From: a virus | Taxonomy: Duplodnaviria; Caudoviricetes | Strand: one strand, 5' to 3' | Length of the DNA: 24,406 nucleotides | Virus record (IMG/VR): IMGVR_UViG_3300031759_000137 | Location: 1-24,406 of that record | Shown: in pieces, positions 2 to 16,120 of the stretch | Layout: each line of letters opens with the position of its first letter | Numbering within the stretch: the stretch's first letter is position 1 | Program-made: the position numbers and the translations under genes | The notes under the pieces: generated by a model | The model's database searches: none | Told to the model about the DNA's origin: nothing | The model's input: the letters and a program-made list of their open reading frames with translations, nothing else

Positions 2-1468
2 CGTGGTCGTAAACCAAATGTCTTAAAGTTCTTTGTAAACGACGAAGAACAGTCTGCAGAGGACAATGCACAGGGTGACTCAAGAGAAACACAGGATGCT
101 ATTGAACGCACTTTGGGTTTATCGCATGATATGTTCAAACATATTCTAGCACTCAACACTTATACAGAACCATTTTTAAGTCTTAAAGCCAACGATCAAC
201 GCACTATCATTGAACAGCTACTGGGTATCACTATGCTGTCAGAACGAGCTGATCGTATCAAAGAAATTAACAAAGAAACCAAAGACGCTATTACACAAGA
301 AGAATTTCGTATTCGTGCTGTGCAGGAGGCCAATAAGCGCATTGAAGAGCAAATTGAGTCGCTAAAACGCAGACAAGGACTGTGGGTAACTAAACATGAA
401 GAAGAGACAACTAAAATTGAGGCCGCGCTTTCGAGCCTCAAGGAGATCGACATTGAAGCGGAGATTGATGCACACAGAGCGCATACTGCTTGGGATCAAA
501 AACGCAAAGATATCAATGAACTATCGGGCGCTATTAGCCGAGCTAAAATTGACGCCGACAGGGAAACTAAAGCCATTGTCAAACTGGAGAAAGAGATTGC
601 GTCGCTTGAGTCTCACACCTGTCACACATGCGGTCAAGCGTTCCACGACTCGAAGCACCAACAGGTCCTGGAAGGTAAGCAGAAAGATCTGGCAACATCG
701 AGAGCGGCAAGCCAAGAGCATACACAACTCTTATCAGACCTACAGACTGCCCTCGAAACCCTGGGCGTGTTAGGTAAACCGCCTCGAATGTTCTACGATA
801 AAGAAGAAGATGCTATTAAACATCAGGCTAACTTGGCAAACTTGCAAACACAATTATCTGCCAAAATAGCCGAAGTAGATCCTTATGTAGAACAAATTGA
901 GGACATGAAGAATCAAGCCTTGCAGGAAGTAAACTATGACACACTCAATGAACTTACTCGCTTGCAAGAACACCAAGATTTCTTGCTCAAATTGCTGACT
1001 AGCAAAGATTCGTTTATCCGTAAGAAGATTATTGAGCAAAATTTATCCTATCTTAATGCTAGACTAACACACTATTTAGATCGTGTAGGCTTGCCACATA
1101 CAGTGGTATTCCAAAACGACTTAACTGTCAGCATTGAAGAGCTGGGTCGTGAATTAGATTTTGATAACTTGAGTCGTGGTGAGCGTAATCGACTAATATT
1201 ATCAATGAGTTGGGCCTTTAGAGATGTATTCGAAAGTCTCTATCAGCCAATCAATCTGTTGTTTATAGACGAAATGATTGACAACGGGCTAGACACACAA
1301 GGTGTTGAATCTAGTTTGGCCTTGTTAAAACAAATGAGTAGAGAACGACACAAGAGTATTTGGTTAGTAAGTCATAGAGATGAACTAGCAGGCCGTGTCG
1401 AGAACATACTCAAGGTAGTCAAAGAAAACGGTTTTACCAGTTATAATACGGATGTAGAAATTGCGTAG
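2..1468 (+). CDS. gp46: Recombination endonuclease ATPase subunit (T4 gp46 / Rad50-SbcC-like), 5'-truncated by the window edge
   Basis: The frame is open from base 2 (RGRKPNVLKFF...), upstream of the ORF-track start at 113. It has a long coiled coil with zinc hook CHTCGQ, ABC signature LSRGE, Walker B LLFIDE, D-loop NGLD and H-loop VSHR. Walker A lies outside the window. Confidence 0.93.
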   Translation, partial: RGRKPNVLKFFVNDEEQSAEDNAQGDSRETQDAIERTLGLSHDMFKHILALNTYTEPFLSLKANDQRTIIEQLLGITMLSERADRIKEINKETKDAITQEEFRIRAVQEANKRIEEQIESLKRRQGLWVTKHEEETTKIEAALSSLKEIDIEAEIDAHRAHTAWDQKRKDINELSGAISRAKIDADRETKAIVKLEKEIASLESHTCHTCGQAFHDSKHQQVLEGKQKDLATSRAASQEHTQLLSDLQTALETLGVLGKPPRMFYDKEEDAIKHQANLANLQTQLSAKIAEVDPYVEQIEDMKNQALQEVNYDTLNELTRLQEHQDFLLKLLTSKDSFIRKKIIEQNLSYLNARLTHYLDRVGLPHTVVFQNDLTVSIEELGRELDFDNLSRGERNRLILSMSWAFRDVFESLYQPINLLFIDEMIDNGLDTQGVESSLALLKQMSRERHKSIWLVSHRDELAGRVENILKVVKENGFTSYNTDVEIA

Positions 1469-2330
1469 AGTTAAAGTACTTCACATAGAACCCACAGATG
1501 TTTGTCAGTTGGCCTGCCCGTTATGCGCTCGCGAAACTGATCCTAACTTCAATAAATCTAACAAGCATCAGCTTAAGATTGAACACATACAGAGAAAATT
1601 TTCAGATCGTGTGATCAAAGGGCTGGACAAAATGTTCATGTGCGGAGACTATGGAGATCCTGCCGCTGGCTACTATACTTTAGAGATTTATCGTTATTTT
1701 AGAACAGTAAATCCAGATATTGTGCTAGGCATGAATTCAAATGGTGCCTTACAAAGCACATTTTGGTGGTACGAGCTAGGCAAATTGTTTAACCAGCCCA
1801 AAGATTACTGTGTATTCAGCATAGACGGCCTAGAAGATACTAATGCAATATATCGTAAAAATAGTAATTGGGCCAAGCTGATGAGCAATGTAGAATCTTT
1901 TATTGCCGCTGGGGGTAAAGCACACTGGGACATGTTGGTATATCGTCACAACGAACATCAAGTAGATGCCTGCGAACAACTAGCTCGTGAAATGGGTTTC
2001 AAGTGGTTCCGTGCCAAAGTTAGTAAGCGTCCGTTGGTGGATCGTTTAGAAGCACCGGTACATTGGCAACTGCCTGTGGTTGAAACTACGGGTAAAATTG
2101 AATGTCACGCCCTGGCTGAAAAAAGTATGTACATGGATGCTCAGGGGCGTCTTAGTCCTTGCTGTTGGTTAGGCAGTAGGCAAACGGATTTTATCACAGA
2201 TGATTTGGCCACAGTAAAAGAAACTTGGCGTACAGATAATCCAAATCCAGTCTGTGCTAGAAATTGTAGCAAACAACTAAGTAAAACGGCATTTGAAACA
2301 CAGTGGCAACGAGAAATTCAACTCAGCTGA
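1461..2330 (+). CDS. Radical SAM protein with a C-terminal Cys cluster (twitch/SPASM-like)
   Basis: CxxxCxxC motif CQLACPLC near the N-terminus, CGDYGDP, SNG and FSIDG core motifs, and C-terminal C...PCC...C...C. TTG start overlaps the gp46 stop. Confidence 0.88.
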   Translation: MRRVKVLHIEPTDVCQLACPLCARETDPNFNKSNKHQLKIEHIQRKFSDRVIKGLDKMFMCGDYGDPAAGYYTLEIYRYFRTVNPDIVLGMNSNGALQSTFWWYELGKLFNQPKDYCVFSIDGLEDTNAIYRKNSNWAKLMSNVESFIAAGGKAHWDMLVYRHNEHQVDACEQLAREMGFKWFRAKVSKRPLVDRLEAPVHWQLPVVETTGKIECHALAEKSMYMDAQGRLSPCCWLGSRQTDFITDDLATVKETWRTDNPNPVCARNCSKQLSKTAFETQWQREIQLS

Positions 2331-2341
2331 TGGTAGTGTGA

Positions 2342-2347
2342 TAACTA
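2342..2347 (+). promoter_or_regulatory. Putative late promoter variant TAACTA
   Basis: Matches the TAnnTA motif seen before many genes in this window. It lies 7 nt upstream of ATG 2355, with no Shine-Dalgarno sequence. Confidence 0.45.
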
Positions 2348-2354
2348 ATAGTCC

Positions 2355-2789
2355 ATGACATGGCTATTCGAAAATCAAACTGTAGAAGCATTACCAGAAG
2401 ATTGCGTTGGGTTTGTTTATTTGATAACAAATAATCAAACCGGTAGAAAATACATTGGAAAAAAATTAGCAAAATTTAGTAAAACAACATACAAAACAGT
2501 AAAACTCAAGAACGGCAACAAAAAACGCAAAAAAATTCGTAGCAAAATAGACAGTGATTGGCAACTTTATTACGGCAGCAACATAGAACTTAATCAAGAC
2601 ATAGAACGCTTAGGCGCAGGCAACTTCACAAGAGAAATATTATTTTATTGCAAATCAAAGGCAGAATGCAGTTATATTGAAGCTAGAGAACAATTTAATC
2701 ATAGAGTACTAGAGTCAGACGACTACTACAATGGGCAGATAGTTTGCCGTATACATGGTAGTCACATAAAAAACAAAATACAAACTTAG
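2355..2789 (+). CDS. Small GIY-YIG-family nuclease (catalytic domain only, with a Lys/Arg-rich insert)
   Basis: GFVYLITN...KYIGKK, YYGSN, FTREIL, catalytic-type E in YIEAREQ and terminal YYN. Basic insert KTVKLKNGNKKRKKIRSK. No C-terminal DNA-binding modules. Confidence 0.8.
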   Translation: MTWLFENQTVEALPEDCVGFVYLITNNQTGRKYIGKKLAKFSKTTYKTVKLKNGNKKRKKIRSKIDSDWQLYYGSNIELNQDIERLGAGNFTREILFYCKSKAECSYIEAREQFNHRVLESDDYYNGQIVCRIHGSHIKNKIQT

Positions 2790-3192
2790 ACAGGCAACAA
2801 CACACTCTGTTTGGTCGAGGTAGCTCGACTCGCAAGGAGGAACGGTTAGATCCCCGGTCCGGAATAGCTTGCGTGTGAAAGGCAATTGCTAACTTAAGGC
2901 AACAAATGGTTCGGGCTCTGATGAAAAAGATACAACCCGTGCTTATAGGACTTGGATCGATTTCGGGTTACTAGGGTTCCGTTGATATGTGAAGCTTGAG
3001 TAGGGGGTACCGGTCAACCGCCTCCGTGTATGGTGTACATACAATCTCATTAGAATCGATGACAGCTACACTCGGATAATGTAGAGTCAGTTCACCGTTA
3101 TACGGTGAATTGTGACCGCGTAATCTGGATAATGCGTAAGAAAAACAATCATGTCTGAGCTTTAGCGAAAGACATAGATCTCAGTGAGATCT
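2790..3192 (+). ncRNA. Candidate large structured non-coding RNA (~400 nt), family not recognised
   Basis: ORF-free gap in an otherwise tightly packed genome with at least 10 helices. Examples: GTCGAG/CTCGAC 2814-2829; ATCGATTT 2956-2963 with GAATCGAT 3053-3060; TGTATG/CATACA 3027-3043; CAGTTCACCGT/ACGGTGAATTG 3088-3112; ATGTCT/AGACAT 3151-3175; AGATCTC/GAGATCT 3176-3192. Several G-U pairs form only on the + strand. Confidence 0.6.
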
Positions 3193-3199
3193 CGAACAG

Positions 3200-4102
3200 T
3201 TAGTTAAATCTAATACCCATTTTAGATAAATGTTTTAAAACATTTGATTCTATTGTTTGCCATTTAGTAAGATAGTCAGAAAGAAATAATTGCTTTGCTG
3301 ATTCATAGTTGATAATAAAATCTTCGTGTCTGTAAGGAATGGCTAGATGTGTTGCCTGTTGGTTACAAACACTAGTTTCAAAACGATACAGTTCAACTGT
3401 ATGATTAGGATAAATCATTCTGATATTGCACCAAAGATTAAATGTTCGTTTAAGAACAGACTCTAGCTGATCTAAATCGTTTTTGGTAATTTCTATTGGA
3501 GTCAGCTGATCAAAATTCACTGGAGAATCATAGTGCAGTGCGGTATGATCATCCAACATGTTTCTAGCTGTAATCAGCTTGCTACAGGCCCAACGCCACC
3601 AGTCTTGACGATACATAAAGCAAATCAAAGTGTTTGGATCACTGCACTGCTGTACTACATCAGTGTTGCTGGGTACAGCATGATGATCAGCAATAGCTGT
3701 ATAAGTTTTCTGTAGTATTTCTTCCTGTAGTACCGTGGCGCACCTAGTCATGGTAAACATCATATACTGTGATATGCCGCTAGTACTGGTGCTAAATCTT
3801 ATGCTAGGATGTATAATTAAATCTTCGGTTTCAGTCCATAGATTGTCGCCAATTAAAAAATCATAAGGCAAGTCTTGTGTAAAAACGGTTTTGATTGAGT
3901 AGGAATTGTCTAACAACCTGTGGAGATCTTGATAACTGTGATCGATATAAGGAGTTTCCCAAATGGTATTAGAGTCTGCAGGCAACTGCCATTGGCCGCT
4001 AGATTTAGTTTCCACATTTTTATAAGTTGGAAATAGCTGACTGATCCAATCTCGTTCGCCCGGTTGATCCTGGGTACAAAGAATAATATTCTTTGGATAC
4101 AT
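3200..4102 (-). CDS. Hypothetical protein; C-terminal part resembles a divergent Stf0/PAPS-dependent sulfotransferase fold
   Basis: 300-aa ORF coupled to the upstream gene by a TAATG overlap. MFTMTRCATVL resembles the 5'-PSB loop RSGT; ICFMYRQDWWRWACS resembles the 3'-PB R.D.....S motif; YRFE resembles the YE motif. Confidence 0.5.
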   Translation of the reverse strand: MYPKNIILCTQDQPGERDWISQLFPTYKNVETKSSGQWQLPADSNTIWETPYIDHSYQDLHRLLDNSYSIKTVFTQDLPYDFLIGDNLWTETEDLIIHPSIRFSTSTSGISQYMMFTMTRCATVLQEEILQKTYTAIADHHAVPSNTDVVQQCSDPNTLICFMYRQDWWRWACSKLITARNMLDDHTALHYDSPVNFDQLTPIEITKNDLDQLESVLKRTFNLWCNIRMIYPNHTVELYRFETSVCNQQATHLAIPYRHEDFIINYESAKQLFLSDYLTKWQTIESNVLKHLSKMGIRFN

Positions 4103-4437
4103 TAGAACTGATCAGGCCAATCACGGAACAGTGCGTGTTGTATGTCACCGGCAACAAATTGATTGAAGCTTTTGTGTTTGACTTCTAGTTCGCCTTCTAA
4201 AGGAGCCACGCGGCGAAACGCCGAATCCATCTGTGCCATGTCTTGGAACTCCATCAAGATCATCCACTCGGGCATGTCAGTAATACTACGGAAGCCCATT
4301 TTGCAACGAGTGATGCGATAGCTTTCCATCTTGCCTTCGGCGATCAAATGATCAAAGAAACTTTTCATTCCGTTGACCCAGTCCAAGTCCGAGATGTCGC
4401 CTTCTTTGTTTGCCCAAATTGTGTACAAGTCTGCCAT
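4102..4437 (-). CDS. DUF6614-like protein (dimeric alpha-beta barrel type)
   Basis: Pattern YTIW...HL...G...YRITRCKMGF....PEWMILMEF..MAQMDSAF..VA......H...N..V......LFRDWPD recalled as DUF6614-like. AAGGA SD upstream on the minus strand. Confidence 0.55.
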   Translation of the reverse strand: MADLYTIWANKEGDISDLDWVNGMKSFFDHLIAEGKMESYRITRCKMGFRSITDMPEWMILMEFQDMAQMDSAFRRVAPLEGELEVKHKSFNQFVAGDIQHALFRDWPDQF

Positions 4438-4474
4438 TATTTTTCCTTAACTTTTAATATACATATATAATTAT

Positions 4475-5155
4475 ATGAAAATACAGTTCGCACATAATTT
4501 TGGCCACCAAGAACAGGGTGAGTTTTTTCACTTTGGTTGTGAGTTAGTTGATGTAGCTCCAGAAGAATACAATGCCGCGTTAGACTTTGGATTTTTACAA
4601 TCGATACGCAACAACAAAGTAGTATGGTATCAAAGTCGCAGTACTCGTGTTGCTGTGGCCAACACCGATTATGAGTTATTGCCAGATGCCTGTATTATTG
4701 AAAATCCTACGCCGGCTCAGTTTACAGAAATGGATCATATCTATACTGCCTACTGCTACTATAAAAAGTTCAAAAAGTATTTTGAAATTGGACAACACTT
4801 GCCGTCGGATCGCTTTATGGCCTATTACCAGAGTGATGTATTTGTGGCCTGGGCCAAACTAAGACACTATTCTGATCAGGCCATAGAAACCAGTTTGTTT
4901 GCCTGGGATTATAGTCAGCCACACACCAGATTAGGCAGTCGTAGTCTAGAGCACGAAATAGCCTGGGCCAAACGCGAAGGCTATGAATATGTTTATCTAG
5001 GACCCGGCTACGAGCGATCCAGTCTGTACAAGGCTGATATACAAGGATTTGAGTGGTGGACTGGGCAAGAGTGGAGTCAGGACACTGATCAATATCGTCA
5101 GCTGTGCAAGCGTGACAGTAAGATCAAGTTGCCCGTGGATCTTTACGGTGTTTGA
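4475..5155 (+). CDS. Aminoacyl-tRNA-protein transferase-like protein (Bpt/ATE1 family, GNAT fold)
   Basis: C-terminal LGSRSLEHEIAWAKREGYEYVYLGPGY....LYK matches the ATE_C signature (LG..S.L.EI..A...G..Y.YLG......YK). N-terminal Y..ALDFGF...RSTRV resembles ATE_N. Confidence 0.7.
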   Translation: MKIQFAHNFGHQEQGEFFHFGCELVDVAPEEYNAALDFGFLQSIRNNKVVWYQSRSTRVAVANTDYELLPDACIIENPTPAQFTEMDHIYTAYCYYKKFKKYFEIGQHLPSDRFMAYYQSDVFVAWAKLRHYSDQAIETSLFAWDYSQPHTRLGSRSLEHEIAWAKREGYEYVYLGPGYERSSLYKADIQGFEWWTGQEWSQDTDQYRQLCKRDSKIKLPVDLYGV

Positions 5156-5633
5156 ACAAGACTTCTAAATAGTCCGCAGGCCAAGTGTCATAAAAGCCCT
5201 TCTTGGCAACAAGCTGGGCTTTTTCATTTAGATCGCTGAGATCTTGAACCAGTGCCAGTGCATAGGTACCTTGATTCATTGAAACACCGTTGACAATTTC
5301 AGGATCGCCAGGATGATCTTCCAACGCTATGAAACCTTTGGGCAGTAAAGCTTCTTCGTTGGCAGCCGTAACATCACTTGCAAATTGTTCATAAGAAAAC
5401 TCATCAGGATTGTAGGCAAGAATTAACACACTCTTGCCACCTATACCATCACGGGCAACATTGACCAGATCAAAATAAGGATTGACACCTACTCTAACGG
5501 TAAAGTCACGATCCAGTCTGGCCTTGCGAGCATATGGACAAGGAGCCCAGCCGCCTAGTGCTGGGTGCGGAACTTCTACAAAAGTTTCTATCCAGTGCTC
5601 TATATCTGATTGTACAGTGGCTAAGTCTAACAT
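5124..5633 (-). CDS. DUF1415-like protein
   Basis: W...FV......CPYA motif, then DHP and N...Y.L. TAATG coupling to the upstream gp51-like ORF. Its 3' end overlaps the convergent transferase gene by 32 nt. Confidence 0.55.
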   Translation of the reverse strand: MLDLATVQSDIEHWIETFVEVPHPALGGWAPCPYARKARLDRDFTVRVGVNPYFDLVNVARDGIGGKSVLILAYNPDEFSYEQFASDVTAANEEALLPKGFIALEDHPGDPEIVNGVSMNQGTYALALVQDLSDLNEKAQLVAKKGFYDTWPADYLEVLFKHRKDPRAT

Positions 5634-15301: not shown

Positions 15302-16120
15302 ATGAAACACTTTATATACAAAACAACTCACATAAACGGCAAATACTATATTGGAAGACATAGTACAGAAAACATCAACGATGGCTACATTGGGTCCGGT
15401 CTTTGGCCTAGTTCTATAAAAGATAAATCCACACTAACTCGAGAAATACTTGAATATGCTGATTCGGTTGAACAGGTAACAAGACTCGAAGGGCAGTATC
15501 TAGCAGAACATTATGGCAAACCGGGTTGCATGAATCAAACTGTAGACCCTATTGGGTTTGATACAGATAATAATCCAATGAAAAATCCAATTATAGCAGA
15601 AAAAATTGCCGGCGATAATCACTATATGAGGAAAAATCCGCAAGCAAGAGAAAATAGTAGACAAAAGCAAAATAAATTAGTTCAGGAAGGTAAGCATAAT
15701 TTACAAGGCGATCGCAATCCAAACAAGGATGGCCGTAACGCTAAAAAAGCATATGAGAATGGCAATCACGTCTGGCTTAAGAATAATCCAAGTATATGGC
15801 GTAGCGAAGCAGGTATACACCACTGGCAAAATGGCAACAGTCCTAACGCTGGCGGCAAATTAAACAAAAAACTTGTAGAAGCCGGAACACACAATTTACT
15901 TGGGCCCGAGCACAATGCCAAACGAATCAAAGAAGGTACACATAACCTGCTCGGTCCAAGTTCGAATCTAGACAGGCTCAAAGCCGGTAATCATCCAAGT
16001 CAAATAAAAAAAACTTGCGAGCACTGTGGAAAAACTGCAAGCGTGAGCATGTATACACGATGGCATGCTGACCGTTGTAAACAATCCCCCAACAACACCC
16101 CCAAGAAAGAAACAAAATGA
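15302..16120 (+). CDS. Free-standing Seg-like GIY-YIG homing endonuclease
   Basis: Start corrected to ATG 15302 (the track's 15059 start runs through gp23 and the terminator). FIYKTT...KYYIGRH, YIGSG, REIL...E, N; then GxH repeats and a C-terminal CEHC...RWH...C zinc finger. Confidence 0.85.
   Translation: MKHFIYKTTHINGKYYIGRHSTENINDGYIGSGLWPSSIKDKSTLTREILEYADSVEQVTRLEGQYLAEHYGKPGCMNQTVDPIGFDTDNNPMKNPIIAEKIAGDNHYMRKNPQARENSRQKQNKLVQEGKHNLQGDRNPNKDGRNAKKAYENGNHVWLKNNPSIWRSEAGIHHWQNGNSPNAGGKLNKKLVEAGTHNLLGPEHNAKRIKEGTHNLLGPSSNLDRLKAGNHPSQIKKTCEHCGKTASVSMYTRWHADRCKQSPNNTPKKETK

Follow-up and report, generated by a model that had tools for sequence, protein, structure and literature searches.

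The 410-nt gap at nt 2790–3199 of the window, by which the whole 24.4-kb virus record analysed here (24,406 nt) is meant, likely encodes on the plus strand a large structured RNA that, judged from its sequence and those of its homologues, stands about an even chance of being a primer RNA resembling ColE1 RNA II, one that would pair with its own DNA and act as a replication origin. Comparison of homologues established a conserved fold with two predicted pseudoknots, occurrence of the RNA independently of the nuclease gene beside it, a rule of identity between two 7-nt words near its 3′ end together with a direction of mismatch, and a bias in the hairpins of its tail. The earlier note had favoured a nuclease-RNA system and listed a structured replication signal among the alternatives; the latter is the better reading.

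The record belongs to a T4-like phage with portal-, capsid- and baseplate-like genes, of which the baseplate-hub label came from a phrog search and the portal-like and capsid-like labels are presumed, and its relatives have genomes of up to 317–367 kb. The gap, the largest in the window (the next being 154 nt), follows a 144-aa ORF at nt 2355–2789 and sits at the junction where a plus-strand block, comprising a gp46-like ATPase gene, a radical SAM gene and the small nuclease gene, meets a minus-strand block. Its earlier description as free of ORFs stood except for a single frame of at least 50 aa touching it, which starts with TTG, encodes 56 aa and runs on the minus strand. The locus is anchored upstream by the C-terminal part of a protein which we take to be gp46/SbcC-like from its Walker-type motifs (nt 113–1468, plus strand); it had no Pfam match, and its homologues also lie upstream in the loci that carry a resolvase gene (see below). 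No sigma-70 promoter was found upstream of the RNA.

Folded as a single sequence, the gap scored modestly above chance, with z of -2.15 on the plus strand versus -0.46 on the minus strand. Comparison of homologues gave strong support, and the earlier proposal of a conserved plus-strand structured RNA is upheld. In an alignment of 56 homologues, including two subtype-B-like rows (L136 and L149), a 76-pair structure had 93.1% of its cells paired and two-sided changes in 52 of the 76 pairs (305 cells), versus 27 pairs and 73 cells in shuffle controls, none of 500 shuffles reaching any of the measures, and 31–49% paired cells in slid controls; since the structure was derived from the same sequences, these counts are biased towards it. 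The fold extends from about nt 2803 to 3136 (approximately 335 nt) and contains two predicted pseudoknots, and an estimated 1,200 viral stretches contain a core motif taken from it.

All the local elements that had been read from the single sequence were recovered, namely the hairpins at nt 2814–2829, 2886–2902, 2912–2939 and 3088–3112, the TGAG/CTCA, GGGGG/CCTCC, CGG-TCAA-CCG and TGTATG/CATACA helices, and the two terminal hairpins. From 5′ to 3′ on the plus strand, a four-helix 5′ domain in its subtype-A form (nt 2803–2877), which replaces the RF01718-matching domain of the sister subtypes, is followed by the two hairpins within nt 2886–2939, the second with a conserved A-rich loop, and by a hairpin at nt 2942–2976. 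The loop of this last hairpin (nt 2956–2962) pairs with nt 3054–3060 to form pseudoknot 1, in which 7 of 7 pairs showed two-sided changes and which is the same in subtype B; the long-range helix proposed earlier between nt 2956 and 3060 is therefore real, but it is a pseudoknot arising from the loop of a hairpin that had been missed. The pseudoknot suggested between GGAAC and GTTCC was not borne out, being 82.4% paired versus 80.7% after shuffling with 3 two-sided changes, and its bases fall in a local hairpin at nt 2839–2860. The actual second pseudoknot joins nt 2982–2985 to the loop at nt 3014–3017 and involves a bulged hairpin (nt 3003–3025) in the most conserved core of the element (nt 2979–3049, with invariant columns); its pairing was complete in 209 of the 222 distinct loci, with 8 fully paired sequence variants, being invariant within the subtype of the window and varying across subtypes. 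Downstream lie repeat unit 1 (nt 3060–3084), with heptamer copy 1 (GGATAAT, nt 3074–3080) in a predicted single-stranded loop of the nascent RNA, an 11-bp spacer hairpin that is part of the covariation structure (nt 3088–3112), repeat unit 2 (nt 3113–3136), with heptamer copy 2 (GGATAAT, nt 3127–3133), the template strand of which is the proposed capture site, and, at nt 3137–3192, an A-rich spacer and two adjacent hairpins (nt 3151–3175 and 3176–3192). The loops at nt 2846–2852 and 2921–2932, which we take to be T-loop-like, could interlock or bind a tRNA elbow, a feature outside what a role as origin explains.

An Rfam search of nt 1500–4500 gave no match up to E 10, RF01718 (cut-off 37 bits) included; the sister subtypes and the island copies described below matched this family, Polynucleobacter-1, with 62–121 bits over the whole 141-nt model, so that the Rfam check proposed in the earlier note was negative for the window and positive for some of its relatives. 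Matches to RF01718 were obtained for 3 of 7, 13 of 20 and 5 of 6 related loci in three tested sets. A subtype-B profile matched nt 2979–3135 of the window at E 1e-14, the invariant core being common to both subtypes. The copies positive for RF01718 have the core of the window and the 3′ module with twin words, and they share with Polynucleobacter-1 a freshwater and Burkholderiales setting and the lack of a known function, whereas the subtype of the window has another 5′ domain and no RF01718 match. The model spans the first ~140 of ~335–350 nt, with neither pseudoknot, the twin words nor the tail inside it, and the 2010 supplement lists 16 sequences, one of them from a Polynucleobacter chromosome (Weinberg et al. 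2010, PMC2864571). In agreement with the earlier note, RNase P RNA, tmRNA, SRP RNA and group I/II introns gave no Rfam or ARAGORN match in the window; a known ribozyme was likewise rejected for want of an Rfam match, and reading the element as a group II domain V was dropped on inspection by eye. No description of the element came up in literature searches on GIY-YIG enzymes with structured RNAs, new large phage RNAs and ornate RNAs; the motif is partly catalogued, and its 3′ twin-word device was not found described in the literature searched. With subtype A or B as query, blastn gave no match among cultured phages. In bacterial genome contigs a loose pattern yielded 121 loci, none with a credible profile match, 3 of 401 pattern matches were at chance level, lay in G+C-rich sequence and had no profile match, and RF01718 was matched in 0 of 151 and 0 of 4 genomes in a search run without a positive control. 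A more distant large RNA occupying the same slot (L229, L248, L250 and L581–L700) was designated subtype C; its homology is based on layout and one match at E 1e-5, two tested copies had no Rfam match, and its twin motif consists of a variable dinucleotide matched between the copies and followed by GGCAA.

Each of the two units of the 3′ module consists of TGAC, a linker of 5–8 nt, a fixed ACTC or ATCT, and the 7-mer, the two copies of which lie 48–60 nt apart across loci. With a first pattern, by which 5 of 138 loci had no module, the two 7-mers were identical in all 133 non-redundant phage loci possessing one, versus a mean of 23 and a maximum of 37 in shuffles. Because this pattern fixed some of the letters, the scan was repeated with a pattern blind to the 7-mer, and the words were identical in 83 of 85 distinct core-bearing matches and, when pooled, in 142 of 145 over 14 different words; among 22 blind-scan matches with no detected core, the 6 identical ones resembled family members. 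Position 1 of the heptamer has undergone at least 25 changes by parsimony, at least 12 in subtype A and 13 in subtype B. At the level of sequence, these comparisons establish that the two words must match each other whatever their sequence.

Three phage modules differed in the heptamer, two of them (L304 and L373) not by G/A alone, and loci L221 and L232 showed a G (copy 1)/A (copy 2) mismatch; among 45 distinct modules of subtype C, 44 had the same letter at the variable position of both copies and one had G/A, 45 of 120 loci not being parsed. The motif from the 2010 supplement retrieved 60 further loci from metagenomes (L707–L766), 50 of which were long enough and 48 of which had the module, giving 40 distinct ones; 29 of these had identical heptamers, 10 had a single G (copy 1)/A (copy 2) mismatch and 1 was mis-registered by the pattern, with no in-register case of the reverse. 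Such mismatches become G·T wobbles under no arrangement other than copy 1 annealed to the complement of copy 2, and their direction agrees with annealing of copy 1 to the template strand of copy 2; as homologues are not independent, the bias in direction rests on few events. At position 8, A/G was observed in 7 of the 40 island modules; similarity at positions 8–10 is also explicable within the RNA, where both tails can pair with linker 1. A comparison of duplexes (117 versus 5) contributes little, since most of its signal comes from a single ancestral difference. The idea that the two words pair antiparallel to each other was rejected, the best-pairing combination never occurring and variant words breaking the pairing, as was, by eye, a T-box-like reading of codons, which leaves the identity at positions 1, 2 and 7 unexplained.

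No viral contig carried the island motif, and no nuclease, resolvase or gp46-like gene was present in the fetched flanks of the 60 loci, six of which, inspected gene by gene, look like bacterial islands. Among 13 island ORFs scanned, 4 were of the integrase family, one was DUF6641 and one was an AAA ATPase; none was assigned to an initiator family. On their freshwater metagenome contigs these loci (e.g. L738:3427–9084) appear as small integrase islands in which the RNA is surrounded by DUF6641, a short tyrosine recombinase and an AAA ATPase; in L708 a tRNA lies nearby.

Of 133 phage loci, 76 have C-GNA-G triloop hairpins after the module on the top strand, compared with 17 on the bottom strand; a looser criterion detected GNA or GNNA in 38 of 40 island tails. 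The RNA body, whose frequent loops include GNRA tetraloops, does not commonly have triloops of this kind, and in the near-complete relative G004 the only long intergenic GNA hairpin lies in the tail. In the window itself the two tail loops are TTTA and AGT, with no top-strand GNA, and the tail of G002 lacks a triloop hairpin of this kind. A+T make up 68% of the 30 nt downstream of copy 2. Mini-hairpins of the GNA type are described as much more stable in DNA and as present at the G4 and ssiA priming sites (PMC13037366). The tail hairpins may in addition terminate the converging minus-strand operon.

In the proposed mechanism, copy 1 would be kept accessible in a loop of the folded nascent RNA when the polymerase arrives at copy 2, the predicted unpaired probability of copy 1 before copy 2 is transcribed being 0.57–0.81, and would anneal co-transcriptionally to the template strand there. 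A persistent R-loop would be seeded in this way over the A-rich spacer. On the displaced top strand, DNA hairpins with GNA caps would form and serve to load a helicase or primase, and synthesis of DNA would be primed either from the end of the RNA or from a product of the primase, as happens at ColE1 and T4 R-loop origins. GC skew lent no support to a role as origin: in three near-complete genomes it tracked the gene strand and did not turn at the site. To our knowledge, no origin has been mapped in phages of this size class.

The element would thus work like ColE1 RNA II and is, by its sequence, not a member of that group, no similarity to ColE1-type or other plasmids having been detected, nor any Rfam match. 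The likeness lies in a large folded transcript, a segment of which matches downstream non-template sequence, and in the proposed use of the displaced strand for helicase loading with no need for an initiator protein. ColE1, according to PMC4412123 and PMC5043065, requires an rG/dC contact between RNA and template and no initiator protein; here, unlike ColE1, the contact would be a mixed and freely variable 7-mer lying ~55 nt upstream rather than a G run, and the element is found in jumbo phages and integrative islands. The T4 origins oriF and oriG, as described in PMC3016281, lie near strand switches and comprise ~100 bp with a promoter and an unwinding element that act independently of sequence, and the rules of R-loop formation at origins of this type are listed there as open. 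The window resembles them in belonging to a T4-like phage, in presumed transcription into an A+T-rich stretch and in the local strand switch near the site, and differs in the conservation of an RNA fold and of the matching words. The wider proposal, that jumbo T4-like phages and small integrative islands have in common a family of RNA-primed origins in which a variable 7-nt self-guide loop of a doubly pseudoknotted RNA captures the template and DNA mini-hairpins load the replisome, is made tentatively and seems somewhat short of evenly balanced. If true, Polynucleobacter-1, catalogued in 2010 with no function, would become a replication primer RNA, and a folded RNA gripping its own template by a swappable word would exist outside ColE1-type plasmids; the twin words would allow a clean and cheap test by compensatory mutation.

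Of the other explanations, the one that survives best, although it is on the whole unlikely, is a free-standing ornate RNA with no role at its own DNA, the pseudo-symmetric 3′ module of which would bind two copies of a partner in trans (a host RNA, a tRNA or a protein dimer) or pair its words in parallel. A common partner in trans would yield the same pattern of heptamer identity, the two pseudoknots, the T-loop-like loops and the GNRA loops are in keeping with such an RNA, cross-pairing of the units about a symmetric loop is predicted in the full-length fold, and a table in Weinberg et al. (PMC2864571) scores Polynucleobacter-1 as a possible cis-regulator. It is opposed by the many occasions on which both words switched together to unrelated sequences, which would be costly with a third partner, by the one-sided direction of mismatch, and by the restriction of DNA-type hairpins to the tail, which it leaves unexplained. 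Neither extra copies nor complements of the unit were present in the genomes; no third site complementary to the heptamer was found in the RNA or within 2.5 kb, the heptamer was neither enriched nor depleted in three genomes, and the twin site occurred once per genome, as a pair in 4 of 5 records and as a single unit in the fifth. A multi-copy operator was rejected on the same lack of additional units.

Two further readings place the function of the words in DNA or in transcription, and even jointly they are improbable. In the first, itself quite improbable, the words form a DNA-level device, such as a recombination overlap, a nicking or packaging site or a template-jump signal, with the RNA fold serving to position or regulate the enzyme that acts there. 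Identity over seven bases is typical of the overlap regions of tyrosine recombinases; the islands encode integrases, and the phage site lies after recombination genes. The copies are, however, merely 48–60 nt apart, reciprocal strand exchange would favour no single direction of mismatch, and no integrase lies beside the phage copies inspected; a template jump by reverse transcriptase was rejected, RVT_1 being absent from 5 of 5 complete genomes while the control was positive. In the second, which has very little probability, the element would act on the recombination operon as a terminator, an attenuator or a stabiliser of the 3′ end, with copy 1 displacing the RNA from its hybrid in the polymerase at copy 2. 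The RNA-DNA hybrid within polymerase is 7–9 nt long, a length that the match equals, the element closes a plus-strand operon at a convergent junction, and the pairing logic is that of the proposed origin; yet the islands inspected have no co-oriented gene directly upstream, and a 335-nt fold with two pseudoknots far exceeds what termination needs.

The 144-aa protein upstream is a compact SegE-like GIY-YIG nuclease (plus strand; PF19835, E 8.5e-33, 113.6 bits against a cut-off of 25; phrog_447), a member of this family by sequence with intact catalytic residues, Y22, Y33, G35, K37, E109 and N126 being invariant across 88 homologues. Its structure model (pLDDT 94) was closest to the catalytic domain of I-TevI (Z 8.5, rmsd 2.6, 82 aligned residues), with the basic insert predicted to form a beta-hairpin; Foldseek returned nothing under E 0.001, a PDB sequence search gave one weak match, and the modelled fold by itself points to no particular function. 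A free-standing homing endonuclease was rejected, as the protein, unlike such enzymes, has no DNA-binding tail, is present as a single syntenic copy in 5 of 5 genomes, and is mutually exclusive with a PD-(D/E)XK gene (PF24608; phrog_244, 'RusA-like Holliday junction resolvase') that takes its slot behind the gp46-like gene in other phages (L111:1778–2290, L122:1789–2295, L144:335–853, and also L207–L286). PF24608 was absent from five genomes with the GIY-YIG gene, 4 of them complete, and present in all five resolvase records, of which the 2 complete ones had no PF19835 and one, 55% complete, had two PF19835 matches in longer frames. Because the two genes exclude each other across six complete genomes, the nuclease is likely, from this sequence distribution, to be a housekeeping junction resolvase or branch-cutting enzyme separate from the RNA. 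A Holliday-junction-resolvase-like role has been suggested for Uri nucleases of jumbo phages, with two families named (Iyer et al. 2021, PMC7824862). Endonuclease VII was found in 1 of 5 genomes, that one being of the resolvase type. That a GIY-YIG gene and a PD-(D/E)XK resolvase-like gene replace each other at a single position hints at the role of a phage gene that is widespread and commonly annotated as 'NAD synthetase'.

The RNA and the nuclease each occur without the other, so the nuclease-RNA system put forward earlier lacks support on several counts. Starting from the nuclease (80 loci), the core lay within 450 nt in 55, more than 1 kb downstream behind inserted genes in 14, and was missing in 11, of which 8 were on contigs ending within 300 nt and 3 had another gene next and ended soon after. 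Starting from the motif (first 80 loci), the nuclease was upstream in 70, the flank was lacking in 3, a long GIY-YIG gene was present in one, and 6 had no nuclease within 2.5 kb, 3 of these having the PD-(D/E)XK gene in the slot; five of the six records, fragments 5–26% complete, were searched whole. The notion that the RNA never occurs without the nuclease was refuted by 80 PF24608 loci, which had no GIY-YIG gene within their 2-kb flanks and carried RNA of subtype A in 29, B in 20 and C in 30, the last one being cut short, so that subtypes A and B stood behind an unrelated gene in 49, and by the islands, with a GIY-YIG gene in 0 of 60 fetched flanks. Subtype C was behind the resolvase gene in 67 of 68 loci with enough flank. 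Homologues of the compact nuclease were present in 303 cultured-phage records; the RNA that had been expected downstream of them was absent within 3 kb in 5 of 5 cultured phages inspected, and in four with the nuclease annotated the next gene started 0–148 nt later. RNA-library contigs, in small shares and from relatives of the window phage, bridge the nuclease gene and the RNA region with no strand, ends or level readable, which is no proof of a single transcript.

That the RNA guides or scaffolds the nuclease is accordingly highly improbable, for although the frequent adjacency, the bridging contigs and the predicted basic hairpin would suit it, the same RNA subtypes stand behind an unrelated resolvase fold and in islands with neither gene, inserted genes split the pair in some loci, cultured homologues have no RNA match nearby, and no nuclease residue covaries with the heptamer. 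The window resembles OMEGA/reRNA systems (IscB-omegaRNA, TnpB-reRNA) in having a compact nuclease gene beside a structured RNA with a variable segment; the nuclease here is GIY-YIG by Pfam and fold, not RuvC or HNH, and linkage to the RNA is not obligate. The guide-like segment that had been anticipated does exist, but it lies inside the RNA, comprises 7 nt and finds its match in the locus of the RNA itself rather than in an outside target.

Several minor features were observed around these loci. Some subtype-A copies have an extra non-coding leader of 90–210 nt between nuclease and RNA (L012:2930–3150, L072:1680–1800), and L091 and L144 have short tandem repeats with AGGCA(C) upstream of the RNA; AGGCA occurs in the window at nt 2792, 2880 and 2897 and was not enriched between genes in three genomes. 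Elsewhere in the window, nt 4102–5633 contain a DUF6614 gene, an ATE_C-like/GNAT gene (below the cut-off) and a DUF6875-like gene, the gene at nt 4475–5155 being on the plus strand and its two flanking genes on the minus strand, and a 272-aa homing-endonuclease-like gene (phrog_314) at nt 15,302–16,120 directly follows the capsid-like gene. The near-complete relatives G002, G003 and G004 each encode a permuted tmRNA and 5–28 tRNAs.
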